A model generated the notes under the pieces. The model did no database searches, was not told the DNA's origin, and worked only from the letters and a program-made list of their open reading frames with translations. Source: Eubacteriales bacterium (lineage in GTDB: Bacteria; Bacillota; Clostridia; Oscillospirales; CAG-382). Taken from it: 64,000 nt of DNA. The position numbers were made by a program, and so were the translations under genes. This document shows, in pieces, positions 50,014 to 63,728 of the stretch. The first letter of the stretch is position 1. Each line of letters starts with the position of its first letter. Location of the stretch: NCBI GenBank assembly GCA_028705495.1, contig JAQWDK010000010.1, positions 507-64,506 on the forward strand, read 5' to 3'.

Positions 50014-52314
50014 ATGGAACAAAAAATCAAAGATATTGCAAGACGAATCAGAGAACTGCGTGAGATACTTGGGATTTCAGCTGCAGAGATGTCTGAAGTC
50101 ACATCAGTAAGCGTAGACGAATACAAAGCGCTTGAAAACGGGGAAACAGATTTTTCTTTTACTTTTATCTACAAATGCGCGAAAAAATTTGGAGTTGAAG
50201 TTACAGATTTACTTTCTGGTATCAGCCCTACGCTTTCATCATATTCCGTTGTTAGAAAAGGTGAAGGTACACCGCTTGCTCGTAGGAAGGGTTTTTCCTA
50301 CCAGTCGATTGCACCGCTTTTCAGAAAAAAGCTTGCTGAACCTTTTCTTGTTAAAGCACCGTACAACGAAGCAGAACAAGATAAACAGATTAAACTCAGC
50401 ACCCACAAGGGACAGGAGTTTGATATCGTTGTTTCTGGAAGTTTAAAGGTTTGTATTGATGGAAACATCGAAATACTAAACGAAGGTGACACAATTTATT
50501 ATGATAGTGCAACTCCGCACGGCATGATAGCAGTTGGCGGAAAAGAGTGCGTGTTTTATGCTATTGTTATTAACGCTGATAGCAGTGATTACAAACAACT
50601 TGAAGAGCCGGACGCTACTGAGTTCGCAAAACCGTCTGAACATCACACATTAACGGGTGCTGTTTACGAAAAGTTCGTCGATTTTACTCTTGATGATAAC
50701 GGTGTACTGAAAGACATACAATTTAAAAATACCGATACTTTTAACTTCGGCTTTGATGTTCTTGATGTTCTCGCTGAAAAAACGCCGATTAAAGTTGCTA
50801 TGTTGCATATCTCAAACGATATGACAGAAAGACGCTTTACTTTTGCTGAAATAAAAAAGTACAGCAACATGACTGCAAACTATTTCAAGTCGCTTGGAAT
50901 TGGTAAGGGCGATAAGGTTATGCTTGTATTAAAACGCCATTATCAGTTCTGGTTTTCAATCCTCGCTCTTCACAAACTTGGCGCAGTAGCAATACCTGCA
51001 ACAAACCAGCTTGTAAAGAAAGATTTTGAATATCGCTTCAACGCAGCTGAAGTCAGTGCGGTTATTTGTACAGCAGACGGTGATACAGCGCATCAAATAG
51101 ATCTTTCACTCGATGAATCTCCGACCCTAAAAACCAGAGTTATCGCTGGAGGTAAAAGAGAAGGTTGGAACAGTTTTGACGAGCAGCTTGATTGTTTTTC
51201 TGATAAATTCGATCGTCCGGCGGATGCAGCATGTGGTGAAGACCTAATGCTTATGTTTTTCACAAGCGGCACAACGGGCTATCCGAAGATTGCAAAGCAC
51301 AGCCACACTTACCCCTTAGGTCACTTTATTACCTCTGAATTTTGGCATAATGTAGACCCTGACGGCATTCACTTCACAATTTCCGACACAGGCTGGGGTA
51401 AAGCACTTTGGGGTAAACTCTACGGTCAGTGGCTAAGTGAAGGCGCTGTCTTTGTTTATGACTTTGACAAATTTATCGCTCATGATATCCTATCGATGTT
51501 TAAGAAGTATAATATTACAACCTTCTGCGCACCGCCTACAATGTATAGGTTTTTTATAAAAGAAGACCTTTCAAAATACGATCTCTCAAGCTTAAAATAT
51601 GCTACTACTGCAGGTGAAGCACTTAATCCGGAAGTATTCAATCAATTCAAAAAAGCTACTGGTCATGTCATAATGGAAGGCTTCGGTCAAACAGAAACAA
51701 CCCTGACAATCTGCAACCTTGTCGGTACTACACCACGTATCGGTTCTATGGGTAGACCTAGCCCGATGTACGATGTCGACCTAGTGGATGCAAACGATAA
51801 AACTGTAGCTCTCGGTGAAACAGGTGAAATTGTAATAAGAACCGATAAAAGCAAACCTTGCGGTCTCTTCCTCGGTTATTATAAAGACGAAGAGAAAACC
51901 AAAGAAGCTTGGCATGATGATGTTTATCACACAGGAGACACTGCTTGGCGTGATGAAGATGGTTATCTCTGGTATGTCGGTAGAACTGATGATTTAATTA
52001 AATCTTCGGGTTATCGAATCGGGCCTTTTGAAATTGAAAATGTCATTATGGAACTGCCTTATGTCCTTGAGTGTGCTATAACAGGGGTGCCCGATGAAAT
52101 CAGAGGTCAAGTAGTTAAAGCCACAATAGTTCTGACAAGAGGAACAGAAGCATCAGAAGAATTAAAGAAAGAAATACAAGAATATGTCAAACACAACACT
52201 GCACCGTACAAATACCCTCGTATTGTTGAATTCGTAAGTGAATTACCTAAGACAATAAGCGGTAAAATACGCCGTGTTGAACTTCGTGAAAAGCACGAAA
52301 AAACATCCGGATAA
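50014..52314 (+). CDS. Fusion protein: XRE-type HTH + cupin + AMP-forming medium-chain acyl-CoA synthetase (ACSM/MacS-like)
   Basis: HTH IRELREILGISAAEMSEVTSVSVDEYKALENGE. Cupin GDTIYYDSATPHG. AMP-binding FFTSGTTGYPK, YHTGDTAWRDEDGYLWYVGRTDDLIKSSGYRIGPFEIE, PKTISGKIRR. Confidence 0.85.
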   Translation: MEQKIKDIARRIRELREILGISAAEMSEVTSVSVDEYKALENGETDFSFTFIYKCAKKFGVEVTDLLSGISPTLSSYSVVRKGEGTPLARRKGFSYQSIAPLFRKKLAEPFLVKAPYNEAEQDKQIKLSTHKGQEFDIVVSGSLKVCIDGNIEILNEGDTIYYDSATPHGMIAVGGKECVFYAIVINADSSDYKQLEEPDATEFAKPSEHHTLTGAVYEKFVDFTLDDNGVLKDIQFKNTDTFNFGFDVLDVLAEKTPIKVAMLHISNDMTERRFTFAEIKKYSNMTANYFKSLGIGKGDKVMLVLKRHYQFWFSILALHKLGAVAIPATNQLVKKDFEYRFNAAEVSAVICTADGDTAHQIDLSLDESPTLKTRVIAGGKREGWNSFDEQLDCFSDKFDRPADAACGEDLMLMFFTSGTTGYPKIAKHSHTYPLGHFITSEFWHNVDPDGIHFTISDTGWGKALWGKLYGQWLSEGAVFVYDFDKFIAHDILSMFKKYNITTFCAPPTMYRFFIKEDLSKYDLSSLKYATTAGEALNPEVFNQFKKATGHVIMEGFGQTETTLTICNLVGTTPRIGSMGRPSPMYDVDLVDANDKTVALGETGEIVIRTDKSKPCGLFLGYYKDEEKTKEAWHDDVYHTGDTAWRDEDGYLWYVGRTDDLIKSSGYRIGPFEIENVIMELPYVLECAITGVPDEIRGQVVKATIVLTRGTEASEELKKEIQEYVKHNTAPYKYPRIVEFVSELPKTISGKIRRVELREKHEKTSG

Positions 52315-52315
52315 C

Positions 52316-52358
52316 AAAAAGAAGGTCCCCAACTTATCAAAAGTTGGGGACCGATTTA
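52316..52358. terminator. Bidirectional rho-independent terminator
   Basis: ggtccccaactt / aagttggggacc, a 12-bp perfect stem, with an A-run 5'. Confidence 0.8.
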
Positions 52359-52359
52359 A

Positions 52360-54096
52360 TTATTTACCACGCTTTATATAGTGGGTATGTAGAATGTCAT
52401 GGGCCTTATGGCTTCCGGGATTACCGAGGAATTCTTCGTAAATCTCTATAACCTGAGGGTTTTCATGAGATTTTCTTATGCCAAGGTTTTTATCAGCATT
52501 GTAAAGAACAGCGGCTCTAAGTTCCTTCAAAGGTACATAATTTCTAACATATGAAGGTTGAGTAGGCTGTCCACCGCCGTTAACGCAACCGCCGGGACAT
52601 GCCATAATTTCGATAAAATGAAATTCCTCTTCACCGCTTTTTACAAGGTCAAGAAGCTCTGCAGCATTTGATGTACCACTGGCTACAGCAACCTTCAGCT
52701 CAAGGTCACCAATGCGATATGTAGCTTTTTTCACACCCTCAACACCACGTACCTCTGTAAAATCAACTGCTTCAAGGGGTTTATTAAGTATTGCTTCTGC
52801 AGCTGTTCTAAGTGCTGCTTCCATAACGCCGCCTGTTGCTCCAAAGATCGCTCCGGCACCCGAACCGAGCTGGAAGGGATTATCAAAATCTTCATCCGGT
52901 AAGCTGTTAAATGAAATTCCGCTACGTTCAATCATCTTGCCAAGTTCTCTTGTTGTTATAGCATAATCAACATCATAAACACCTGCAGCAGATTGACCGT
53001 CGCGTTTAACTTCAAATTTCTTTGCTGTGCAAGGAATAACTGAGACGAATATAATATCCTCAGGATTCCAGCCCATCTTCTGCGCATAATATGTCTTAGC
53101 AATTGCTCCAAACATCTGCTGAGGAGATTTACAGCTTGAAAGATTTTCAACGAATTCAGGATAATAGTGTTCGCAGAACTTTATCCAACCAGGTGAGCAG
53201 GATGTAATGAGTGGGAGTTTGCCACCGTTTTGAATGCGTTCGATAAGTTCATGAGCTTCTTCGAGAATAGTAAGGTCTGCTGTCAGGTTCATATTAAAGA
53301 CACCTTCAAAACCTATTCTTCTTAGAGCTGCAACCATTTTACCTTCAACATCCGTTCCGGGTTCATTACCAAAACACTCACCAAGCGTCGCTCTGACTGA
53401 AGGTGCTGTACAAACGAGAGCATGTTTGGACTTGTCGGCAATAGCCTCCAGGACTTCGTCTGTCTGATCCCTCTCTGATAAAGCACCGGTAGGACATACA
53501 ACAATACATTGACCGCAAAGGATGCAGGGTGAATCGGAAAGGTCCTTTTCAAAAGCACAGCCGATATGTGTATCGAAACCACGGTCGTTTGCACCGATAA
53601 CGCCAACATTCTGTGTTACTTTACAAGCGGCAACACAGCGGCGGCAGAGTATACATTTATTATTATCACGAACGATAGACAGAGTTGATTCGTCTTTACT
53701 AAATTCATTGGTCTTACCCTTGAAATAGTTTTCGTCCGTAACACCGTATTCAACACAGTATTTTTGAAGTTCACAGCTCTTATTTCTTACGCAGCTAAGG
53801 CATGACTTATCATGATCCGAGAGTATCAATTCAAGATTAAGCTTTCTTGCGCGTCTGACCTGAGGAGTGTTGGTGAATATCTCCATGCCTTCATTTACCG
53901 GAGCGACACAAGATGCGACCATTGACCTTGCACCCTTTACCTCCACAAGGCAAAGACGACAAGCGCCTATTGCGTTTATGTCTTTGAGATAACATAGTGT
54001 CGGTATATGAATCGAAGCTGCTTTACAAGCGTCAAGGATGGTTGCATTCTTTGGAACTGAATAGGCGACACCGTTTATCTTTAAATTTACATTCAT
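52360..54096 (-). CDS. hydA: [FeFe]-hydrogenase catalytic subunit (HydA/HndD type, multimeric NAD(P)-linked group)
   Basis: N-terminal 2Fe-2S (CYLKDINAIGACRLC), His-ligated and 2x[4Fe-4S] domains. H-cluster motifs TSCSPGW (L1 variant), IPCTAKKFE (L2), EIMACPGGCVNGGGQP (L3). Confidence 0.92.
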   Translation of the reverse strand: MNVNLKINGVAYSVPKNATILDACKAASIHIPTLCYLKDINAIGACRLCLVEVKGARSMVASCVAPVNEGMEIFTNTPQVRRARKLNLELILSDHDKSCLSCVRNKSCELQKYCVEYGVTDENYFKGKTNEFSKDESTLSIVRDNNKCILCRRCVAACKVTQNVGVIGANDRGFDTHIGCAFEKDLSDSPCILCGQCIVVCPTGALSERDQTDEVLEAIADKSKHALVCTAPSVRATLGECFGNEPGTDVEGKMVAALRRIGFEGVFNMNLTADLTILEEAHELIERIQNGGKLPLITSCSPGWIKFCEHYYPEFVENLSSCKSPQQMFGAIAKTYYAQKMGWNPEDIIFVSVIPCTAKKFEVKRDGQSAAGVYDVDYAITTRELGKMIERSGISFNSLPDEDFDNPFQLGSGAGAIFGATGGVMEAALRTAAEAILNKPLEAVDFTEVRGVEGVKKATYRIGDLELKVAVASGTSNAAELLDLVKSGEEEFHFIEIMACPGGCVNGGGQPTQPSYVRNYVPLKELRAAVLYNADKNLGIRKSHENPQVIEIYEEFLGNPGSHKAHDILHTHYIKRGK

Positions 54097-54114: not shown

Positions 54115-55911
54115 TTATTTTCTGATTATGGCGTTGAATTTACACTTGGTAACACAGACACCGCACTTAATACATTTTACCTTATCGATAATATGCACCT
54201 GTTTGACTTCGCCGCTGATAGCATTAACGGGGCATGCTCTCTTGCAAGCAGTACAACCCTTGCAGTTTTCGGGTACCACTTCGTAGGAGACGAGGTTTTT
54301 ACAAACACCTGCAGGACATCTCTTTTCAACAACATGAGCGATATATTCATCTCTGAAATAGCGGAGTGTGGAAAGAATCGGGTTTGGAGATGTTTGACCA
54401 AGTCCGCAAAGAGATGTTGCTCTAATATGATGAGCAAGCTCTTCAAGTTTATCTAAATCCTCGAGTGTGCCGTTGCCGTTAGTTATCTTTTCGAGTATCT
54501 CGAGCATACGCCTTGTTCCTATACGGCAAGGAGTACATTTACCGCATGACTCATCTACAGTAAATTCAAGGAAGAATTTTGCGATGTCAACCATACAGTT
54601 GTCTTCATCAAGAACAATAAGACCGCCGCTTCCCATCATTGATCCGATTGCCAAAAGATTATCGTAATCAATAGGGGTATCGATATTCGAAGCAGGTATA
54701 CAGCCGCCAGAGGGTCCACCGGTTTGTGCTGCTTTAAACTTTTTACCATTAGGAACACCACCGCCGATTTCCTCAACGATTTCTCTAAGTGTTGTTCCCA
54801 TAGGAATTTCAACAAGTCCTGTGTGTGTAATTTTACCGCCAAGAGCGAATACCTTTGTACCTTTAGATTTTTCTGTTCCCATAGAGGCGAACCATGAAGC
54901 ACCTTTGAGGATTATTTGAGGTATGTTAGCGTATGTTTCAACGTTATTTATAATCGTTGGTTGACCGAAAAGTCCTTTAACAGCGGGGAAGGGAGGACGG
55001 GGTCTTGGTTCACCTCTATTACCTTCGATTGAGGTCAGAAGTGCTGTTTCCTCACCGCAGACAAATGCCCCGGCACCAAAGCGGAGCTGTATATCAAAAT
55101 TAAAACCAGAAGAGAAAATATCTTCACCGAGAAGGCCCATCTCTCTCGCCTGAGCAATTGCAATTGTAAGGCGTTTGATTGCAATCGGGTATTCGGCTCT
55201 TACATATATGTAACCTTCATCAGCACCGATTGCGTATCCTGCAATAGCCATAGCTTCAATTACTGCATGGGGGTCACCTTCAAGTATCGACCTGTCCATG
55301 AAAGCTCCCGGGTCGCCTTCATCTGCATTACAAACGACATACTTTTTATCAGAAACACTTTTAACAGCAAAATCCCATTTCATGCCTGTGGGGAACCCAC
55401 CGCCGCCTCTGCCACGAAGACCGCTGTCTTTCATTACCTGAATGACTTGGGCAGGTGACATTTCAGTAAGAACCTTACCAAGTGCCATGTAGCCGTCCAT
55501 GCCTATGTATTCTTCGATTGACTCAGGGTTAATATAACCGCAATTTCTGAGTGCAACACGTTTTTGCTTCTTGTAGAAAACAGTATCGTTGAGTGAAACA
55601 TGTGTTCCGTCGTCAACTTCTTCAACGGTATCATTGTAAACGAGTCTTTTAACGATCCTACCTTTGAGAAGATGCTCCTCCACAATTTCAGAAAGGTCGC
55701 TTACAGTAACACGGCTATAAAATGTTCCGTCAGGATAAACTATTATAATCGGTCCAAGAGCGCACAAGCCGAAACAGCCTGTCATAACAATTTTTATTTC
55801 GTCTTCCAGTCCTTTCGCCTTGAGCTCAAGTGCCAGGGCATCTTTTATAGCAAGGCTTCCGGACGATGTGCAGCCTGTACCGCCGCAAATCAGAATATGT
55901 GAGCGTATCAT
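54115..55911 (-). CDS. hydB: NuoF-like flavoprotein subunit of the hydrogenase (HydB/HndC), with an N-terminal Trx-like 2Fe-2S domain and C-terminal 2x[4Fe-4S]
   Basis: GRGGGGFPTG (FMN/NAD site), ESCGKCTPCR, C-terminal CKGCTACKRACP / CIKCGVCVTKC. The start is either ATG 55911 or TTG 55935. Confidence 0.92.
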   Translation of the reverse strand: MIRSHILICGGTGCTSSGSLAIKDALALELKAKGLEDEIKIVMTGCFGLCALGPIIIVYPDGTFYSRVTVSDLSEIVEEHLLKGRIVKRLVYNDTVEEVDDGTHVSLNDTVFYKKQKRVALRNCGYINPESIEEYIGMDGYMALGKVLTEMSPAQVIQVMKDSGLRGRGGGGFPTGMKWDFAVKSVSDKKYVVCNADEGDPGAFMDRSILEGDPHAVIEAMAIAGYAIGADEGYIYVRAEYPIAIKRLTIAIAQAREMGLLGEDIFSSGFNFDIQLRFGAGAFVCGEETALLTSIEGNRGEPRPRPPFPAVKGLFGQPTIINNVETYANIPQIILKGASWFASMGTEKSKGTKVFALGGKITHTGLVEIPMGTTLREIVEEIGGGVPNGKKFKAAQTGGPSGGCIPASNIDTPIDYDNLLAIGSMMGSGGLIVLDEDNCMVDIAKFFLEFTVDESCGKCTPCRIGTRRMLEILEKITNGNGTLEDLDKLEELAHHIRATSLCGLGQTSPNPILSTLRYFRDEYIAHVVEKRCPAGVCKNLVSYEVVPENCKGCTACKRACPVNAISGEVKQVHIIDKVKCIKCGVCVTKCKFNAIIRK

Positions 55912-55936
55912 AGACTTTTTGTATACTCCAATCAAA

Positions 55937-56305
55937 TTATTTTACTTCGCCGATTGTAAACTCTTTGACGGGTTTACCGCCTTTTATATGCTCTTCGACG
56001 ATTCGTGCGACTTTATCAGCAGTCATTTTTACATATGTAACCTTGTCTTTACCTTTTTCAAATACCTCAACAACGGGTTCGTATTGACAGATTCCAATGC
56101 ATCCCGTTTGAGTTACAGAAACAGTTCCTGAAAGTCCACTTTCGTTGATGGCGCTAACAAAGGTATTGAGTACCGGACGTGCTCCTGCAGCTATTCCGCA
56201 GGTCGCCATTCCGACAACTATCCTTTTGTCGCCTAATCCTTCTCGAAGTGCGACTTTTTCTTTCATTCTATCTCGTATTTCCACAAGTTCAGCCAATGTT
56301 TTCAT
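55937..56305 (-). CDS. Thioredoxin-like [2Fe-2S] ferredoxin subunit (HndB-like)
   Basis: 122 aa with the cysteine pattern MATCGIAAGA ... QTGCIGICQYEP. Confidence 0.8.
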   Translation of the reverse strand: MKTLAELVEIRDRMKEKVALREGLGDKRIVVGMATCGIAAGARPVLNTFVSAINESGLSGTVSVTQTGCIGICQYEPVVEVFEKGKDKVTYVKMTADKVARIVEEHIKGGKPVKEFTIGEVK

Positions 56306-56326: not shown

Positions 56327-56878
56327 TTACAAAGTGCTATACTGTTCAGTAAGATAGTCTTTAATCCATTCTAAAACCTCAGGAGTGTTCAGTGGAACAT
56401 CACCTAGCACTTGACGCATTTCTTTCGTCTCAAGCTTTAATGAGCCTGTCGGTGAAGAATGGTGAAAATAGAAGTCAATGTTTGGGTTTGTATGTATTAA
56501 AAGACTTAATGTTGAAATTATATCTCCGATAGGAGGAAAATCGATATGTCTTGAGTTGAAGTCAGCTGTTACTTCTGTCCCGTGGTCATCGATGTATTGT
56601 TCTTGATCCCGAGAATTAATTACCACCCGACCACCTGTTTGCTCAGCAGCCATAATTAGATAAGGAACACCTAAGCCGACCTTTCTCGTTGTTCTGGAAG
56701 TGTAAAACGGTTTTTTAACCTGGTTAAGTGTTTCTTCATCCATGCCGCAACCGTCGTCGGTAACTTTCATCTGTAGCATACCGTTATCATACTCGGTAAT
56801 TGATATTCCGATGTTTTTCGCGCCAGCGGTTATTGAGTTCTGGACGATGTCAAGTATGTATAAAGACAGCTCTTTCAT
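56327..56878 (-). CDS. Stand-alone GHKL/HATPase_c ATP-binding protein encoded inside the hydrogenase operon (HydD-like)
   Basis: N-box LDIVQNSITAGA, G1 DDGCGM, G2 GLGVP. No DHp/His or receiver domain. Confidence 0.8.
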   Translation of the reverse strand: MKELSLYILDIVQNSITAGAKNIGISITEYDNGMLQMKVTDDGCGMDEETLNQVKKPFYTSRTTRKVGLGVPYLIMAAEQTGGRVVINSRDQEQYIDDHGTEVTADFNSRHIDFPPIGDIISTLSLLIHTNPNIDFYFHHSSPTGSLKLETKEMRQVLGDVPLNTPEVLEWIKDYLTEQYSTL

Positions 56879-56893
56879 AATAACCGGATTCTC

Positions 56894-57391
56894 TTAAATA
56901 GTATATTTAGAGAGAATTCCCGCTACATCATCTTTAGTCAATCTACCATAAACATCATCATTAACAGTGAGGACTGGAGCAAGTCCACAGGCTCCAATGC
57001 AGCGTGTCGCCTCGATGGAATATTTGCCGTCAGCACTCGAACCTCCTTGAGGAATACCGAGAATCTCAGAAATTTTGTTTAATATCTCGCCACTTCCTTT
57101 AACATAACAAGCCGTTCCCAAGCAAACAGAAATTGCATATTTACCTTTGGGGTTGAGAGAGAACTGAGAATAGAACGAAACTATTCCATAAATCTCCTCA
57201 AGAGGTATACCTGTCTCATCGGACACGATTCTCTGGACTTCGATAGGCAGATAGCCATATATTTCTTGGGCTTCCTGCAGTATCGGCATCGTAGAGCCTT
57301 TGATATCTTTGTACTTCTCAATAACTTTTAGGAGCTTTAACTCCTGTTCTTTGGTGCCGTTAAACACGACTGTCGTGAGCTTTTTTTTCAT
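56894..57391 (-). CDS. hydC: NuoE-like [2Fe-2S] subunit of the hydrogenase (HydC/HndA)
   Basis: ISVCLGTACYVKG ... RCIGACGLAP cysteine pattern. 165 aa. Confidence 0.9.
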   Translation of the reverse strand: MKKKLTTVVFNGTKEQELKLLKVIEKYKDIKGSTMPILQEAQEIYGYLPIEVQRIVSDETGIPLEEIYGIVSFYSQFSLNPKGKYAISVCLGTACYVKGSGEILNKISEILGIPQGGSSADGKYSIEATRCIGACGLAPVLTVNDDVYGRLTKDDVAGILSKYTI

Positions 57392-57588
57392 GTAATAAAA
57401 TCCCCCTGTAGCTTTCCCGATAGGTAGTATATTCTAAATGAAGTTTTAGAACAATCGAGAGCTATTATATACAATGCCTAAAAATGACATAATACATCAT
57501 ACTTATAATAATTAACAAGATGACATGTGATTGTTAAGGATGTTTGTGTAAGTGCTTTAGTAGGAATTAACCTTTACCCATCCTTGCT

Positions 57589-57617
57589 ATTATATTACAA
57601 AACTCTGAAGAATTCAA
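57589..57617 (-). promoter_or_regulatory. Sigma-A promoter for the hydrogenase structural operon, giving a ~190-nt 5' UTR
   Basis: On the minus strand: TTGAAT (57617-57612), 17 nt, TATAAT (57594-57589), immediately downstream of the PHP gene stop. Confidence 0.55.
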
Positions 57618-57637
57618 GGGTTACAGAAAAGTAATTA

Positions 57638-58363
57638 TCAAAGTAAAGAATTAATTATAGATTCTGATTTCAAGGGCCATGGTAAGTTATCATCTAAAAT
57701 AAAATATCCGAAAGAATCTCCGAATTTTGAAAGGCAGTGCGAATCAGACCCGAAGAGACTTCTCATTGTTTTAATCTTCTGATGCTTTGTTGATATATTA
57801 ATGAGGTTGTCTGCGTTAGAAAGCTCAAAATATTTAAATGGTGGTTCATCAGGAAATATACCAAGAACAGAAGTAACTGAGAATGACGGTCTATCTATAT
57901 GAGCGGGGTAACAGATTCCACCATACGAATTTATTTTATAAAAGGCTTCAGAAAGCGTTAAAGACGATGCTGAAGAAAGTAAAAGGTCACATTCATAGGT
58001 TTCTGTTTCATTTATGGAATAAATAATTTGGTGACCGAAAATATCAGGCTTATTTTTTATATTTAATAACGTTTTTTCGACAAAACTCGAAAAATCAAGG
58101 GCTGATTCAAGTCGTGGGAATAGGCATATTAGATGGATTTCTTCGGCCGTGCACAATTCCATACCAGCAATTGGGATTATCCCATAATAATTGCATGCAT
58201 GGAAAAAGGCAGGTAAGTTCAGACAAGTGTTGTGGTCTGTTAATGCAACTGCATCAAGACCATTTACCTTTGCCATACCTGCTATGTCAAATGGTGTCAT
58301 ATCATCATCCGCACATGGTGATAGGCAGGAATGAACATGAAAGTCATAAATTAGCTTTTTCAT
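57638..58363 (-). CDS. PHP (polymerase/histidinol phosphatase) domain phosphoesterase
   Basis: DFHVHSCLSPCA, ALTDHNT, YPAHIDR, GSDSH metal-binding motifs. ATG 58363 lies within the GTG 58375 ORF. Confidence 0.8.
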   Translation of the reverse strand: MKKLIYDFHVHSCLSPCADDDMTPFDIAGMAKVNGLDAVALTDHNTCLNLPAFFHACNYYGIIPIAGMELCTAEEIHLICLFPRLESALDFSSFVEKTLLNIKNKPDIFGHQIIYSINETETYECDLLLSSASSLTLSEAFYKINSYGGICYPAHIDRPSFSVTSVLGIFPDEPPFKYFELSNADNLINISTKHQKIKTMRSLFGSDSHCLSKFGDSFGYFILDDNLPWPLKSESIINSLL

Positions 58364-58676
58364 GAATCGAAACACAAAGCTCGTAAACAGAAGCGCAAGA
58401 TCTAAGCATATTTACTCCTTTTACTGACGCAATAGCAATAATTTCATCTGAGATTTCAGCATTTTCAGCGATGATAACACAAGCTGCATCGACAAGAGAT
58501 GCAACAGCGCAAACATTAACATTTGTCATAATTGTTATCCAAGCACAACCGCTTTCAGCTCTTCCCATTACCCAGCTGAGAAGGTCGCCCGTGTAGATGT
58601 TTTCAACTAATCGCTCGCCGTCAGGCAGTGAGAGGATTTCACAATTCAATGTACTTGCAAGCTCGTTTACATTCAT
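58344..58676 (-). CDS. DRTGG domain protein (copy 2)
   Basis: About 110 aa and a paralogue of the 60451..60816 protein: MNVNELASTLNCEIL vs MKIKEIVRLLEADVL, and GDLLSWVM vs SDMMSDVL. Start chosen by alignment with the paralogue. Confidence 0.7.
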   Translation of the reverse strand: MNVNELASTLNCEILSLPDGERLVENIYTGDLLSWVMGRAESGCAWITIMTNVNVCAVASLVDAACVIIAENAEISDEIIAIASVKGVNMLRSCASVYELCVSIHEKANL

Positions 58677-58699
58677 ATACAAATTCCTGCTTTCGTTTT

Positions 58700-59992
58700 T
58701 CAAAAACAACCTTCGCTTTCGGGAAGCTGTTTAATCTTTTCTCTCATCTTTATTATACATTCTATCTCATGTGCGTCACCCTTTACGATATCTTCAGCAA
58801 AGGTGTGACAAGTAGGTGCACCACATGAACCGCAATCAAGGCAGGGAAGTCTTGATGCGATGTCCTCGATTTCAGCAAGTTTTCGCATAGCTTCGGTGCG
58901 ATCTGATGATAAAGCTGAAACGGGGTTATATGTAACTGCTTCTTTTACAAGGATCTCATCCGGTACAAAACAATCGCTTTTAGCATGATAATTTTCTATT
59001 CTATTACAGGAGATCGGAAGGTATCTTCTTAAATTTTGTAACCTTGCTTTAGCTATAAAGGGGTTCTCTACAGTAAGAACACCACCTACACAACCACTTG
59101 TGCAAGCGTTAAGTTCAACAAATTCGAGATCGGGAAAATTACCTGTTTCAAGCTGATCCAGCACCTTAATAACGTTTTCTATACCATCAGCAGCCAGATA
59201 ACGATCGTTAAAAAGCGAAGTAGCTTCACCACCGGTAGATGCCCAGCTTATTCCGATAACACCTGTTTTTGAGGAGGTTTTAGGGATATGCTGTTTTTTC
59301 ATAACCGATAATAGTTCAAAATAAATTTCATTCATTGATAAGACAAAATCTACGCAACCTTTAACCGAATAGAAACCGTTTTTTATGTAGCTTATCTTTG
59401 CAGGACAAGGAGAAATAAAAACTGTACAAATATCTTCTTCTTTTAAATCAGGGTGTTCTAAGAGAGCTCTTTCTTTAGCTTTGATACCCGCGATTTCCAT
59501 TGGCGACATTATAGGCATGATGTTGTTACAAAGGTAAGGGAACCTCATACTAATGAGTCTAACAACTACAGGGCAAGCAGAACTGATTACCGGACGTTTA
59601 ATTGCTGGCGTTTTTAAATAGTGGCGTGTATATTCGGACACAATTTCAGCAGCTCTTGCAACTTCATATACATCATCAAAACCGATATCAAGGAGTCCTT
59701 GTAAGACATAGTCAATGTCATCAAGGTTATCAAATTGACCGTAGAGAGAAGGTGCCGGAAGCGCAATTTTCCACTTATAGTTCATCACACTGTCAAGCTT
59801 ATCGAAAACAGCGGTTTTTGCCTTATATGGGCATACTCTTATGCATTCGCCACAGTCAATACAGCGTTCAGAATTGATTTGTGCATGACCGTCTCTTACC
59901 CTAATCGCTTCAGTTGGGCATCTTTTAAGGCAATTTGTGCAACCCTTGCATTTTTCTAAGTTCAGTAGAACTGAATGATTGTATTTATTCAT
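58700..59992 (-). CDS. HydS-like putative sensory [FeFe]-hydrogenase (2x[4Fe-4S] + H-cluster domain + C-terminal Cys motif)
   Basis: CKGCTNCLKRCP / CIDCGECIRVCP. H-domain motifs SSACP (L1 with Ala at the proton-relay position), SPCPAK (L2), ELNACTSGCVGG (L3). C-terminal CLDCGSCGAPTC. Confidence 0.8.
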   Translation of the reverse strand: MNKYNHSVLLNLEKCKGCTNCLKRCPTEAIRVRDGHAQINSERCIDCGECIRVCPYKAKTAVFDKLDSVMNYKWKIALPAPSLYGQFDNLDDIDYVLQGLLDIGFDDVYEVARAAEIVSEYTRHYLKTPAIKRPVISSACPVVVRLISMRFPYLCNNIMPIMSPMEIAGIKAKERALLEHPDLKEEDICTVFISPCPAKISYIKNGFYSVKGCVDFVLSMNEIYFELLSVMKKQHIPKTSSKTGVIGISWASTGGEATSLFNDRYLAADGIENVIKVLDQLETGNFPDLEFVELNACTSGCVGGVLTVENPFIAKARLQNLRRYLPISCNRIENYHAKSDCFVPDEILVKEAVTYNPVSALSSDRTEAMRKLAEIEDIASRLPCLDCGSCGAPTCHTFAEDIVKGDAHEIECIIKMREKIKQLPESEGCF

Positions 59993-59996
59993 GGCA

Positions 59997-60419
59997 TCAT
60001 ATATTTACCGTCATGGTTATTCTTGTACCGACACCAAGTTCGGTTTGAATAGCCATCGTATCGGTGTACCTTTTCATATTTGGCAATCCCATTCCAGCAC
60101 CAAAACCTAAAGAGCGTATATTATCCGGTGCTGTTGAAAAGCCTTCTTGCATAGCAAGGTCTATATTGGGGATCCCCGGACCGTGGTCGTCGAGAATTAT
60201 TTCAATTCGATCGTTTTTTACAACAACCTCAGCTTTCCCACCATGAGCGTGAATGACCATGTTAATCTCACCTTCATACATTGCGATGGAAACGCGCCTT
60301 ATGATTTCTGGGGCAAAACCAAGCTGTCTTAGTTTCTTCTTGACTGAAACCGAAGCTTCACCGGCTGAAGTAAAATTACTGCCATCTATTTCGTATCTGA
60401 AAATCAACTGTTCGTCCAT
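59997..60419 (-). CDS. Anti-sigma-factor-type Ser/Thr protein kinase (SpoIIAB/RsbW-like HATPase)
   Basis: 140 aa. YEGEINMVIHA (N-box), DDHGPGI (G1), GFGAGMGLPNM (G2). Confidence 0.8.
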   Translation of the reverse strand: MDEQLIFRYEIDGSNFTSAGEASVSVKKKLRQLGFAPEIIRRVSIAMYEGEINMVIHAHGGKAEVVVKNDRIEIILDDHGPGIPNIDLAMQEGFSTAPDNIRSLGFGAGMGLPNMKRYTDTMAIQTELGVGTRITMTVNI

Positions 60420-60450
60420 AATGAGCTTGCGCCTTTCAAGGTGTTATCTT

Positions 60451-60816
60451 TCAATCAGTATTTGCGGGTTTTGTGCATCCGCCAATAAGACCCGCGGTGT
60501 AAAGTCTGCCGCAGGCTTCATACATGCGTTCGGCGGTTGCCAAAAGAACAATACCATTCTCCTCAGCAAGCGAAAGAACCTCCTGACCCGGTCTTTTATT
60601 TCTAACGAAAACAATGCATCGCATATCCATCATTTCAGCGGTTCTCACTACCTGTTGATTAAGAAGACCTGTTAAAAGCACACCTTGATCCTTTACAAAA
60701 GCAAGAACATCACTCATCATATCACTACCGCAAGCAGAATAAACATCGCTATCAAGCAGATTTTCACATGTCAGAACATCAGCCTCGAGTAGTCGGACTA
60801 TTTCCTTTATTTTCAT
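60451..60816 (-). CDS. DRTGG domain protein (copy 1)
   Basis: 121 aa, with LLTGLLNQQVVRTAEMMD and IVLLAT segments typical of DRTGG. First gene of the module. Confidence 0.7.
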   Translation of the reverse strand: MKIKEIVRLLEADVLTCENLLDSDVYSACGSDMMSDVLAFVKDQGVLLTGLLNQQVVRTAEMMDMRCIVFVRNKRPGQEVLSLAEENGIVLLATAERMYEACGRLYTAGLIGGCTKPANTD

Positions 60817-60862: not shown

Positions 60863-60891
60863 ATTATAATAAATAAAGTAGTAAAAGTAAA
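60863..60891 (-). promoter_or_regulatory. Sigma-A promoter for the DRTGG-kinase-HydS module
   Basis: On the minus strand: TTTACT, 17 nt, TATAAT. Confidence 0.5.
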
Positions 60892-60937: not shown

Positions 60938-60969
60938 AAAGGAACGCTTTGAAATTCTTCAAAGCGTTC
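60938..60969 (-). terminator. Rho-independent terminator downstream of tRNA-Thr
   Basis: gaacgctttgaa / ttcaaagcgttc, a 12-bp stem, followed on the minus strand by cuuuguuuua. Confidence 0.75.
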
Positions 60970-61045
60970 TGGAGCTACTGATGTGACTCGAACACACGAC
61001 CTGCTGATTACGAATCAGCTGCTCTACCGGCTGAGCTACAGTAGC
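60970..61045 (-). tRNA. tRNA-Thr (anticodon CGU), CCA encoded
   Basis: The reverse complement folds as a cloverleaf. Acceptor GCTACTG/CAGTAGC, D arm GCTC-AGCCGGTA-GAGC, anticodon arm GCTGA-TTCGTAA-TCAGC, T arm GTGTG-TTCGAGT-CACAT, discriminator T, 3' CCA. Confidence 0.93.
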
Positions 61046-61066: not shown

Positions 61067-61095
61067 ATTATATCAAATATCAACCGTAGTGTCAA
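61067..61095 (-). promoter_or_regulatory. Consensus sigma-A promoter for tRNA-Thr
   Basis: On the minus strand: TTGACA (61095-61090), 17 nt, TATAAT (61072-61067), about 20 nt upstream of the tRNA 5' end. Confidence 0.7.
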
Positions 61096-61118: not shown

Positions 61119-63728
61119 CTATTCGACATTGATATTTACAGTGAATGAAATTTCAAAACCGTCAATAAATTTCGCTACAGCGCAGAAATAATCCTGCCCT
61201 TCAAAACCTTTTAGAGCTCTATAGCTATACGTTCCGTTTGGGTTCATCTCGATATTACCGTATTTCGGTGAAACGGAAAGTGAGATTTCATAACCACTTG
61301 CATTTTCTAATGTTAGTTTTCCTGTATGTTTTTTGTCAGTTACAGCTATGATAACCGTCATATCTTTCAAATCACTATGGTTGCAATAGGAAATATAACT
61401 ATAATTTTTATCAAGTAATCCTTTTGAAAACAGATAGGTATCCTTATATACCGATGCAGTGTATGGATCCGGATCATTCATAGCATTAGTGATTTCAGAA
61501 GGGATCACATTGTGATAATAAACCTTAACTGCGTCCATATAACCGTATTTAACACCGTATTCGAGATACCGTTTATATCTTACAATATTCGTAAGATTAG
61601 TATATGTGTTAATTTCAAGCTCAACGCTCATTCCGTGAAGCCTTGCTTGATACGCTGTTGTCACAAGTCTTTCCGCATCTGAAGTGTAATCAAAAGCATA
61701 ATTTGGTTGCAGGCATGCGAGATCAAATCCAAAATCCTTCCAAAGGTCAAAGGATTGAGCGCGGTAATATGGAATCCAAATAATTTTATAACCCTTTGAA
61801 TGAACATAATCTCTTATATACTCAAAAGCTTCAACCTCAAAAGGATCAGCAGAATTAATAAATTCTTCTTGCCAGTAGAAACCTACAAGGTTGATTTTAT
61901 CAAGGTTAGCATCATCAAGCATCTCTAACTGAGTGTCAACCATCCACTTGAGCGCCTTCTTGCGATTTTCAACTTTGTCCAATGGGTCATCCTTACCATC
62001 GCCATCTATATCACCGAAGGTGTTTACAACTCCATCTGAAACATAAGGTACAGGCCTTAACAGTGACATAAATATGTTTGCTTTATAATCATTTTTATCA
62101 AGAGCCTCAGATACTATTTTTATAGCATCGTTTAGTGCAAGAATGTTTGTTCCTTCAATAAACTGACTGTTCAGATAAAATTTCCAGCCATCAAACCTTA
62201 TTCTGTCTTCAGCTTTTGTAAAACCTGAGCAGGGAGAGAACAAATAGGTATTAATAAATGTATCCTTAATTTCACCGTTTTCATAATAACCTACATAAGG
62301 CAAAAATTCTTCGACAGTAACCATACCGAGATCGTCATATATTACCCCATCGCCAATACAAACCGGAGTGCACATTATATTGTCAATACCACTAAACTCT
62401 TCAGGAGTTTTGAAACTATCGCTCAGCTTTGTTATATCAGGCAAATTGGGATTAGGATTTTTTGCAGCGGATGGAATCGATTTTGTTCCGAATATTTCTA
62501 TTTCCCCAACTGCTCTGAAAGCAGGACTAAGAAAAGTGACTTTAATAAACCGAGCTTTAAAGACTCCTTCGAAATTAGCAGTAAATCTGCAACTCTGAGC
62601 ATCTTTAGCTTTGTCGTAAGTCACCTCAGCGCTTCCAATACCTTGCCAATCGTAGCCGTTGACACTTGCGCTGAAACCAACAGCAGTTGCTGGGTAGACA
62701 CCCCAGGAAATATGGGCTATGAATTCACCCGATGCAGATTCAACCGCAGAAATTTTTTCGAGGTCAATGATAATAGACCGACCATCTCCTCTTGTGAAGC
62801 GGAAAACATTAGGGTTATCCCAAGCGGGTCCGTTAACATACTTTCCATCATTAATTTTAGCTGCGTTCTCAATTGGACTGTTTAAAGAAGCAATGCAGTC
62901 GTCCTCTAAAAGGGAGGTAAATGCAGATATATATACTGGTTTATTCAAAGCAAGATTTTGTTTTTCGTTAAAATCCTTTTCGCTTTTGTCCCAATAAACA
63001 TCAGCAGCTTCGGATAAATTAAAGGACGGATAATAATCAAAAACCTTTTCAGCACCGTCAGTTGTGTTTTCAGATGAATAAGTATATGCTGATATTTCGT
63101 CGACAAAAATAAACCCGCCCTGAGTTCTTGCAAACACCAATTTCATATACTGCGCTGAAACCGAGTTTTGCATGTAAAAATTATAACTATATCGCCTGAC
63201 ATCCTTGATCTGAGAAGGTTTTTCTACTCTACTCACTCTTGTGTAATCAGTGCCGTCGTTGGAAAAGTAAAGCTCGGCATAGTCCGGTAAACCAATGCCA
63301 TAATCAAGCTGAGAAAGTAATCCAATCTCAACATCGGCTATATCACTTTTCTTTTCCCCAAAATCAAAAACAATCTCTACTCTGCTTTTGTTGACAAAAC
63401 CGACCCAGTTATATGTATCAAAACCGCCTACAGCGATTCCATCGGTAAGCATCCCACCTCTGTCTACGTACGAACCGTTATCGCCTGAATCAACAGACGA
63501 CTTGTAGGGAACGCCTTTTAAAAAGTTTGAACGAGTGAGAGTTCGGTCTATATCACCAACTAGCATATTATTGATTGCCTTGACAGCATGCGGAACTACA
63601 TACTCTGAAGGTGTAGAAAAGTCTGATTCCGCTGAAACGCTTAACGATTCGTCGTTTATATCACGTTGACAAGAAGCACAGGTAACTAATAATATAATCA
63701 GAAGGATAATTGCAACAAATTTTTTCAT
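61119..63728 (-). CDS. Large exported lipoprotein: two discoidin/F5-8C-like modules + TIM-barrel-like domain (DUF4855-like) + C-terminal Ig-like domain
   Basis: Lipobox VTCASCQ. LVGFYWQEEF and IIWIPYY segments resemble DUF4855 from memory. The domain name is not verified. Confidence 0.45.
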   Translation of the reverse strand: MKKFVAIILLIILLVTCASCQRDINDESLSVSAESDFSTPSEYVVPHAVKAINNMLVGDIDRTLTRSNFLKGVPYKSSVDSGDNGSYVDRGGMLTDGIAVGGFDTYNWVGFVNKSRVEIVFDFGEKKSDIADVEIGLLSQLDYGIGLPDYAELYFSNDGTDYTRVSRVEKPSQIKDVRRYSYNFYMQNSVSAQYMKLVFARTQGGFIFVDEISAYTYSSENTTDGAEKVFDYYPSFNLSEAADVYWDKSEKDFNEKQNLALNKPVYISAFTSLLEDDCIASLNSPIENAAKINDGKYVNGPAWDNPNVFRFTRGDGRSIIIDLEKISAVESASGEFIAHISWGVYPATAVGFSASVNGYDWQGIGSAEVTYDKAKDAQSCRFTANFEGVFKARFIKVTFLSPAFRAVGEIEIFGTKSIPSAAKNPNPNLPDITKLSDSFKTPEEFSGIDNIMCTPVCIGDGVIYDDLGMVTVEEFLPYVGYYENGEIKDTFINTYLFSPCSGFTKAEDRIRFDGWKFYLNSQFIEGTNILALNDAIKIVSEALDKNDYKANIFMSLLRPVPYVSDGVVNTFGDIDGDGKDDPLDKVENRKKALKWMVDTQLEMLDDANLDKINLVGFYWQEEFINSADPFEVEAFEYIRDYVHSKGYKIIWIPYYRAQSFDLWKDFGFDLACLQPNYAFDYTSDAERLVTTAYQARLHGMSVELEINTYTNLTNIVRYKRYLEYGVKYGYMDAVKVYYHNVIPSEITNAMNDPDPYTASVYKDTYLFSKGLLDKNYSYISYCNHSDLKDMTVIIAVTDKKHTGKLTLENASGYEISLSVSPKYGNIEMNPNGTYSYRALKGFEGQDYFCAVAKFIDGFEISFTVNINVE

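Follow-up and report, generated by a model that had tools for sequence, protein, structure and literature searches.

A conserved modular signalling cassette with a putative sensory [FeFe]-hydrogenase accompanies NuoE/NuoF-type bifurcating enzymes

We analysed a stretch of 64,000 nucleotides (nt) from contig JAQWDK010000010.1 of a Eubacteriales bacterium (the window), in which a five-gene module on the minus strand (57638-60816) stands upstream of the genes for a bifurcating [FeFe]-hydrogenase. An earlier reading of the letters alone (the sequence-only reading) had taken the module for a partner-switching circuit responsive to H2 or redox state. Comparison with related loci shows that its genes belong, together with a sixth, to a conserved modular signalling cassette that is genetically tied to bifurcating enzymes of the NuoE/NuoF type (HydABC/Bfu). 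In order of transcription, the module encodes DRTGG-1 (60451..60816), a single-domain protein of 121 amino acids (aa) that matches Pfam DRTGG; a 140-aa SpoIIAB/RsbW-like GHKL ATPase of the serine-kinase type (59997..60419), recognised by HATPase_c_2 and referred to here as the kinase; HydS (58700..59992), a 430-aa putative sensory [FeFe]-hydrogenase assigned to group D (M2e) by Pfam matches and motifs; DRTGG-2 (58344..58676, 110 aa); and a PHP-family metal-dependent phosphoesterase (57638..58363, 241 aa). The junctions between these genes are gaps or overlaps of 4-31 nt. Start codons of the last two genes were re-chosen from the DNA, which makes them slightly shorter than the longest open reading frames (ORFs): the likely ATG of DRTGG-2 lies at 58676 behind an AGGA ribosome-binding site in a frame open from 58709, and that of the PHP protein at 58363 in a frame open from a GTG at 58375. 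The gene order and positions given in the sequence-only reading thus stand, and the same order recurs in all testable related loci (see below). Its domain assignments were confirmed as well (DRTGG, HATPase_c_2, Fer4/Fe_hyd_lg_C and PHP), as was its statement that helix-turn-helix (HTH), receiver, sigma and STAS domains are missing from the five proteins, which Pfam searches at E ≤ 0.01 bore out and extended to PAS.

A spacer of 246 nt (57392..57637, minus strand) separates the PHP gene from the structural genes, which continue on the same strand with hydC for a NuoE-like [2Fe-2S] subunit (56894..57391), a gene for a second GHKL ATPase of 183 aa ('HisK', 56327..56878, matching HATPase_c and HATPase_c_3), a gene for a small thioredoxin-like, HydD-like [2Fe-2S] ferredoxin (55937..56305), hydB for a NuoF-like subunit binding flavin mononucleotide and NAD (54115..55935) and hydA for a catalytic [FeFe]-hydrogenase (52360..54096); HydC, HydD and HydB were assigned with Pfam and NCBIfam. 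HydA is of the NADH-dependent bifurcating type: it scores 869 bits against NF040763 (cut-off 765), and its closest solved structure is A. woodii HydA1 (PDB 7Q4V, E = 5.6e-200). A NADH-dependent-type HydA, a NuoF-family HydB and a NuoE-family HydC are therefore encoded in one cluster, as expected for HydABC/Bfu enzymes (NCBIfam). The cluster of ten genes ends at a hairpin terminator with a 12-bp stem that includes 7 GC pairs (52324..52352, minus strand), and no terminator-like site was found between the PHP gene and hydC.

In HydS, Pfam delimits a Fer4 dicluster (residues 8-58), Fe_hyd_lg_C (76-304) and FeS (PF04060, 382-413). The ligands of the predicted H-cluster, C140, C196, C297 and C301, are invariant in 22 aligned relatives, as is S194 within motif L2 (ISPCPAK); motif L3 reads ELNACTSGCVGG (pattern ELNACxxGC). 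L1 is SSACP, and its Ala139 aligns with the first Cys of L1 in the HydA of the window (TSCSPGW), which corresponds to the first Cys of canonical TSCCP. Alanine thus indeed replaces the proton-relay Cys, as had been proposed. The C-terminal motif that had been given as CxxCxxCxxxxC needs correction: an additional cysteine motif exists, but the first of the cysteines listed (C384) is not conserved among relatives, and the true motif is Cx2Cx4Cx16C, formed by C387, C390, C395 and C412, which are invariant. The protein ends 18 residues after C412, and no PAS domain was matched in it at E ≤ 0.01, so that the PAS domain following the C-terminal cluster in group C (M2f) is missing. Land et al. list as traits of M2e/group D the loss of C299 (the proton-relay Cys in CpI numbering), the exchange of Met353 for Ser or Thr, Cx2Cx4Cx16C, the lack of PAS and a position beside a bifurcating group A enzyme (PMC8163306). 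HydS has the F-domain and H-domain, lacks the relay Cys, carries Ser in place of Met353 and contains Cx2Cx4Cx16C without PAS.

The characterised group D protein TamHydS from Thermoanaerobacter mathranii is built in the same way, with two [4Fe-4S] clusters, an H-domain, a C-terminal four-Cys cluster and no PAS (PMC8163306, PMC13104023). For comparison we translated its coding sequence as the PMC13104023 supplement prints it, a text with frame errors from optical character recognition. In spite of these errors, identity with the window protein amounts to at least 47% over residues 4-310 and to 58% over residues 388-425. SSACP, ISPC (TamHydS L2 is ISPCAAK) and Cx2Cx4Cx16C are common to both, and C387 corresponds to TamHydS C379, mutation of which turns the C-terminal cluster into a [3Fe-4S] cluster (PMC13104023). 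TamHydS, too, has a bifurcating HydABC encoded next to it, together with a 'histidine kinase-like ATPase'. Differences are a Leu before the L3 Cys of TamHydS, where the window protein has Asn, and an AraC regulator reported beside the TamHydS gene (PMC8163306), none of which flanks the window locus. Because the traits of Land et al. are present and motifs and alignment match TamHydS, we assign the 430-aa protein to the group D (M2e) putative sensory [FeFe]-hydrogenases, which upholds and specifies its earlier designation as a sensory-type enzyme. Its family is large: the protein search yielded at least 8000 scored matches, and no fewer than 598 species-representative genomes encode a relative. 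As a group D HydS locus this one is typical, an ordinary instance of a gene cluster that is very widespread.

Gene order was compared across 80 related loci from different species, 67 of which had enough flanking sequence to be tested and 71 of which could be scored for the position of hydC. DRTGG-1, kinase, HydS, DRTGG-2 and PHP follow each other in this order in 67/67 testable loci. In 65 of the 71 scored loci, hydC lies upstream of DRTGG-1 at a median distance of 38 nt, and the PHP gene is followed, about 60 nt on, by the genes for the 183-aa ATPase, HydD, HydB and HydA. The module is usually embedded within the structural operon, between hydC and the gene for the 183-aa ATPase. The separate operon upstream of the structural operon that the sequence-only reading had described is present in the window, but it is a minority layout, common to the closest relative (L081) and six other loci. 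In several loci from gut metagenomes, the five-gene module is divergent from hydC, which is then followed by the 183-aa ATPase and structural genes.

The 183-aa ATPase is a sixth constant member of the cassette. Its gene is found directly 3' of the PHP gene in 50 adjacent pairs (loci L081-L170), and it remains beside DRTGG-2 and PHP where hydC has changed place, even in a locus without a hydrogenase (L087). A metagenome scan anchored on this ATPase returned 37 loci with enough upstream sequence, and PHP was nearby in 35 of them, in 34 together with DRTGG-2. The full set including HydS occurs in 22/37 loci, while DRTGG-1, kinase, DRTGG-2 and PHP without HydS occur in 9/37. Among ten kinase-bearing loci without HydS, six have a kinase ORF with an N-terminal extension of 175-251 codons (L165, 3902-4909, as well as L128, L150, L151, L164 and L168); these are five of the nine HydS-less loci and L150, which is without DRTGG-1. 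In L165, the single locus tested, the extension is a CBS pair according to Pfam. The hydrogenase-free locus L087 (8001-10822), from a metagenome-assembled genome of Desulfobacterota, encodes a DRTGG-1-kinase fusion, DRTGG-2, PHP, the 183-aa ATPase and a single-domain receiver, and neither HydS nor HydA nor NuoEF. In L092 the cassette stands beside a NuoF-GltD fusion enzyme, and no HydA or HydS was detected there.

The cassette consists of parts that move as units. The sets [DRTGG-1, kinase, HydS] and [DRTGG-2, PHP, ATPase] swap their relative position in L109 and L159. DRTGG-1 and the kinase form one unit, being fused in at least 120 protein clusters (261-289 aa, at least 94% of the query covered) from Thermoanaerobacterales, Aminicenantales and Desulfobacterota, where the rest of the cassette and HydABC follow; the window has separate genes where its Thermoanaerobacterales relatives have the fusion. 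Single examples were encountered of DRTGG-1-HydS, PHP-ATPase and HydS-histidine-kinase fusions, and no DRTGG-2-PHP fusion was present in 61 adjacent pairs. Three further arrangements may be recorded here. L099 (202-3268) contains DRTGG-2 and the 183-aa ATPase beside a HydS fused to HisKA/HATPase_c, plus a receiver; in L135 (1510-4269), PHP and ATPase share one ORF that is followed by an NtrC-type sigma-54 activator; and in the Aminicenantales-type loci L088-L090, the DRTGG-1-kinase fusion and HydS come immediately after HdrC/HdrB/HdrA-like genes (Fer4_8, CCG, FAD).

The description of the kinase as SpoIIAB/RsbW-like proved accurate. Its nearest PDB entries are SpoIIAB and RsbW (1TIL, 1L0O and 1TH8, E ~2e-6), and its best NCBIfam match is TIGR01925 (spIIAB) with 58.6 bits, which at an equivalog cut-off of 135 bits signifies relatedness and not equivalence. 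The ATP-binding boxes are conserved across 70-100 relatives (N box YEGEINMVIHA, G1 box DxGPGI, G2 box GFGAGMGLPNMKR). SpoIIAB Arg20 is important for partner binding; the aligned position of the kinase is occupied by Ser. DRTGG-1 reaches 28.9 bits against Pfam DRTGG (cut-off 25.2). DRTGG-2, with 20 bits, is under this cut-off and was recognised as a full-length paralogue of DRTGG-1 (BLASTP E = 2e-10). In DRTGG-1 the canonical GDRxD motif is replaced by L-x-N-x-Q. An AlphaFold2 model of DRTGG-1 (predicted local distance difference test score 93) has AF_1212 (2IOJ) as its best Foldseek match (template modelling (TM) score 0.80), and it also resembles the CBS-pyrophosphatase DRTGG domain (TM 0.70) and the N-domain of HPrK/P (TM 0.67). 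A STAS-like fold was considered and rejected, as the top 50 Foldseek matches comprise DRTGG domains, HPrK N-domains and Mur-ligase N-domains and no STAS domain. According to the model, DRTGG-1 is a protein with the DRTGG/HPr-kinase N-domain fold and not the STAS fold, so that the earlier notion of a partner switch retains its SpoIIAB/RsbW-like kinase, while the analogy is functional only. Neither a STAS antagonist nor a PP2C phosphatase was found among the proteins of the cluster with Pfam and NCBIfam, the PHP protein being the only phosphoesterase, and the window cluster likewise lacks the HisKA/DHp and receiver domains of two-component systems (Pfam).

Both DRTGG paralogues share an invariant D-x-x-S, whose Ser sits at a helix N-cap in the DRTGG-1 model. 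D32 and S35 of DRTGG-1 are invariant in 74 diverse representatives, and D42, L43 and S45 of DRTGG-2 are conserved in 84 sequences. The phosphorylated Ser of SpoIIAA sits at a similar position. The call of a PHP phosphoesterase was sustained by a Pfam PHP match of 46 bits and by the metal-ligand motifs HxH, DH, E, H and DxH, which are conserved across 70-100 relatives; no sequence relative of this protein was found in the PDB. Because of weak similarity to TrlF and Ppl an anti-phage role was considered for it and rejected, as PADLOC returned nothing relevant. The N, G1 and G2 boxes of the 183-aa ATPase are conserved across 70-100 relatives, and no similarity between the two GHKL proteins is detectable. 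Judging from these motifs, kinase, PHP protein and 183-aa ATPase all look active. On the C-terminal side of its ATPase domain, the 183-aa protein carries a conserved H-[IP]-D-x-x-P-[LI]-G-D (residues 111-119). The P/L spacing of this motif resembles a histidine-kinase H-box, so that the protein might be a permuted mini histidine kinase; its His is conserved at 85-97% and thus not invariant. A homologous gene was named 'hisK' by Schut et al., and the holoenzyme purified from A. mobile does not contain its product (PMC9304861).

Two promoter-like sites with 10/12 consensus positions each precede the two gene sets of the window, one 5' of DRTGG-1 (TTTACT-17-TATAAT, 60863..60891, minus strand) and one inside the PHP-hydC spacer (57589..57617, minus strand). 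The former had been named as the module's own promoter. The match is real, but the region holds 25 promoter-like sites where shuffled sequences lead one to expect 23.2, and since there is no enrichment, both sites are plausible by position only. Within the spacer lies the leader of ~190 nt that the sequence-only reading had suggested as a possible output. It gave no Rfam match at E ≤ 1 and a fold z-score of -1.34, it is not conserved in the closest relative, and comparison with six loci of the same layout revealed nothing conserved beyond Shine-Dalgarno and -10 elements; moreover, 65/71 relatives lack the PHP-hydC spacer altogether. For these reasons we discard a leader RNA as output.

Note that the absence of a DNA-binding output from the module holds in cis. 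No gene family recurs in the flanks of the 80 loci, the largest being a solute-binding protein in 6/80, and a conserved DNA-binding or sigma gene in the flanks is rejected for this clade. In the cluster and the 80 flanks, the parts that were searched, no linked sigma factor was found in the former and none recurs in the latter; one could still be encoded elsewhere in the genome. A Rex operator is also rejected for the window: 11 Rex-box matches within 3 mismatches over 64 kb compare with 12.5 expected, and none falls in the promoter regions. In the relatives, Rex-box-like sites lie 5' of 35/65 embedded operons versus 7% in shuffles, and in three loci, L086 (7372-8004), L134 (6971-7681) and L149 (7034-7687), the cassette has a rex gene right beside it. 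This recalls the documented Rex control of hyd operons in Caldicellulosiruptor (PMC6391272). In Thermosediminibacter, rex is upstream and overlaps the start of the cassette, while in two high-GC metagenomic loci it lies downstream of the ATPase gene. A different element, [CG]TATAG-N19-21-TGTATAAT, precedes both transcription units in L015, L017, L019, L023 and L066, which have the layout of the window; one copy lies upstream of DRTGG-1 and one between PHP and hydC. The element also occurs in 8/65 embedded loci; it may combine an extended -10 promoter and a palindromic operator, and it is absent from the window.

Neighbouring features of the window were also recorded. Directly upstream of the module lies a gene for tRNA-Thr(CGT) (60970..61045, minus strand) with a perfect promoter of its own (TTGACA-17-TATAAT with TG, 61067..61095) and a hairpin terminator (60942..60969), just downstream of which the promoter-like site of DRTGG-1 is situated. 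This unit insulates the module from an 869-aa gene at 61119..63728. At the other end, a 766-aa ORF on the plus strand (50014..52314) converges on hydA, and the hairpin at 52324..52352 is bidirectional and common to both; by reading only, the ORF looks like an AMP-forming acyl-CoA synthetase that carries an XRE-type HTH and a cupin at its N-terminus. In HydA itself, Ser replaces the second Cys of canonical TSCCPxW in L1 (TSCSPGW, residues ~297-303). The variant is invariant in 52 relatives, is the same in A. woodii HydA1 (7Q4V) and has been remarked on once, for Melainabacteria (PMC3787301).

Several known systems resemble the cassette in part. HoxBC, which acts with HoxJ and HoxA, is a regulatory [NiFe]-hydrogenase, a low-turnover H2 sensor that controls a catalytic hydrogenase. 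Such enzymes, cited for comparison in PMC8163306, differ in having an unrelated metal centre and in signalling by way of a PAS histidine kinase and a response regulator that binds DNA, neither of which is present in this locus. The partner switches SpoIIAB-SpoIIAA-SpoIIE and RsbW-RsbV-RsbU and the RsbR/S/T/X stressosome combine, like this locus, a small GHKL kinase with a phosphatase and two paralogous small proteins, and the small proteins of partner switches have, like the DRTGG proteins, a conserved Ser at a helix N-cap. Here, however, DRTGG takes the place of STAS and PHP that of PP2C, no sigma factor is linked, and one of the small proteins is often fused to the kinase. The serine phosphatase HfsC is another enzyme of the PP2C type. 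It belongs to the group C HydS/HfsB systems (T. maritima HydS, R. albus HydS and hfsABCD of Thermoanaerobacterium), which share with this locus the lost relay Cys, the C-terminal four-Cys cluster and phospho-signalling genes beside catalytic hydrogenases, but which differ by a fused PAS domain and by HfsC (PMC11837493), where the present locus has no PAS, a PHP protein, two DRTGG proteins and two GHKL ATPases. Finally, the regulatory CBS-DRTGG insert found in family II pyrophosphatase has, like the HPrK/P N-domain, the fold of DRTGG-1. The DRTGG-CBS pairing in the pyrophosphatase parallels the CBS-kinase variants of the cassette, and the DRTGG N-domain of HPrK parallels the DRTGG-kinase fusions; in both enzymes DRTGG is a domain within a single protein, and its function is poorly defined.

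On balance, we favour the interpretation that the six genes serve NuoEF-type bifurcating enzymes as a modular phospho-signalling cassette whose H2 input is HydS, a package we consider somewhat more probable than its negation. HydS would sense H2, and DRTGG-1 may be the kinase's own regulatory or docking domain that couples the kinase to the sensor, a parallel to the DRTGG-like N-domain of HPr kinase; because DRTGG-1 is so widely fused to the kinase, such a role fits at least as well as that of a substrate. DRTGG-2, PHP and the 183-aa ATPase would make up another sub-module, in which the signal is received and reset. The kinase most likely phosphorylates a serine of a partner, the leading candidate being DRTGG-2 at its invariant D-x-x-S, PHP would take the phosphate off again, and the 183-aa ATPase could be an effector or a second phospho-carrier. 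The output would either act post-translationally and directly on the bifurcating enzyme or go to an unlinked factor such as Rex; it would be neither a leader RNA nor a regulator encoded in the cluster. We infer both the phospho-acceptor, the least secure part of the package, and the output.

Several points weigh against this interpretation. Phosphotransfer is a prediction from sequence, and the kinase stays far under the equivalog cut-offs of SpoIIAB and RsbW. AF_1212, an unrelated DRTGG protein, carries a Ser at the same aligned position, which means that the DRTGG serine may be structural and which weakens Ser35/Ser45 as a phosphorylation site specific to the subfamily. The closest NCBIfam matches of the PHP protein are PHP enzymes of the nucleotide or nucleic acid type and not protein phosphatases of the CpsB/YwqE type. 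TamHydS's C-terminal cluster does not undergo reduction by H2 (PMC13104023), and the window contains no rex gene in addition to lacking a Rex box. Lastly, 1:1 co-transcription in structural operons and the existence of non-hydrogenase Bfu partners would be compatible with a role in assembly or maintenance too.

The same genes can be explained in other ways. If the sequence-only reading applied literally, the five genes would be an autonomous partner switch whose two DRTGG proteins replace STAS and are the common targets of opposing action by kinase and PHP, with a post-translational or leader-mediated output. The SpoIIAB/RsbW-like kinase, the D-x-x-S with its helix N-cap Ser in both paralogues and the promoter-like sites before both gene sets of the window agree with this view, which we nonetheless regard as unlikely: the module resides inside the operon in 65/71 relatives, the sixth gene is left out of account, the leader is neither conserved nor structured, DRTGG-1 is not predicted to have a STAS fold, and its fusion to the kinase in many lineages would be unusual for a freely switching antagonist. 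In another explanation the kinase would be a true anti-sigma factor that sequesters an unlinked sigma factor, the DRTGG proteins would be anti-anti-sigma factors and the output would be transcriptional. SpoIIAB is indeed the best NCBIfam match and, with RsbW, the best in the PDB; yet the score is 58.6 against the 135 bits of the equivalog, the position of Arg20 is Ser, and no sigma-factor family recurs beside the cluster in the 80 loci or is present in annotated contexts, so that we judge this explanation very improbable.

The location of the genes inside structural operons, the occurrence of the cassette with Bfu-type enzymes in the absence of hydrogenase or HydS, and the finding that 'hisK' and hydD are operon-encoded yet outside the A. 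mobile holoenzyme (PMC9304861) would also suit accessory proteins that assemble, mature or repair NuoEF-type complexes, with chaperone-like GHKL proteins and PHP as a hydrolase. This is improbable, if slightly less so than the anti-sigma explanation, considering that the closest relatives of the kinase are regulatory Ser kinases, that the inputs HydS and CBS pair are of a sensor type and interchangeable, and that in several lineages the cassette has receiver, NtrC-type or rex genes as neighbours. HydABC has also been purified or solved without cassette proteins (7Q4V, 8A6T; A. mobile, PMC9304861), a comparison of complexes and not of gene content. The remaining explanation, to which we give the least credence of all, makes HydS a slow catalytic or electron-entry hydrogenase alongside HydABC, with kinase and phosphatase regulating something else. 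TamHydS does catalyse reversible H+/H2 interconversion, if slowly, but its H2 affinity and CO tolerance are like those of regulatory hydrogenases (PMC8163306), and the relay Cys is lost. Such a role also sits badly with the strict synteny of HydS between kinase and DRTGG-2, with its absence from roughly one in four metagenomic cassettes, where several have an extended CBS-type kinase instead, and with the relatives in which it is fused, in one case to DRTGG-1 and in a second to a histidine kinase.

Group D HydS proteins are already known, TamHydS has been characterised spectroscopically, and recent overviews describe the group as functionally undefined (PMC11216029). Of the gene neighbourhood, the literature searched offers an annotation list from Halanaerobium (PMC4237134) and a single sentence on T. 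mathranii (PMC8163306). In the literature searched, no paper ties DRTGG to hydrogenases or kinases, none brings hydrogen sensing together with DRTGG proteins, the PHP enzyme or the 183-aa ATPase, and the cassette-level reading does not appear. A more far-reaching proposal, tentative and in our estimate somewhat short of even, is that the six genes are an undescribed modular phospho-signalling cassette dedicated to NuoEF/Bfu bifurcating enzymes, in which DRTGG would stand in for STAS and PHP for PP2C, an orphan GHKL ATPase would be the effector or phospho-carrier, the input would be swappable (HydS for H2, a CBS pair for adenylates), and the output would fall on the enzyme or on Rex, with no DNA-binding partner of its own in between.

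Alone, the window locus adds nothing new; it is the comparison of its relatives that supplies leads. This comparison pairs DRTGG-1 and the kinase as likely partners and groups DRTGG-2 likewise with PHP and the 183-aa ATPase, it shows that Bfu enzymes other than hydrogenases are served by the cassette too, with different inputs, and it removes the idea of a leader RNA. Group D HydS proteins are under intensive spectroscopic study, and the route of their signal is a recognised open question of the field, which is thereby narrowed to a short list of candidates for binding and phosphotransfer. Bifurcating hydrogenases set the balance of H2, NADH and ferredoxin in Clostridia of the gut, the rumen and biofuel production. 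Post-translational feedback of H2 on these enzymes, if true, would matter for the control and engineering of fermentation.

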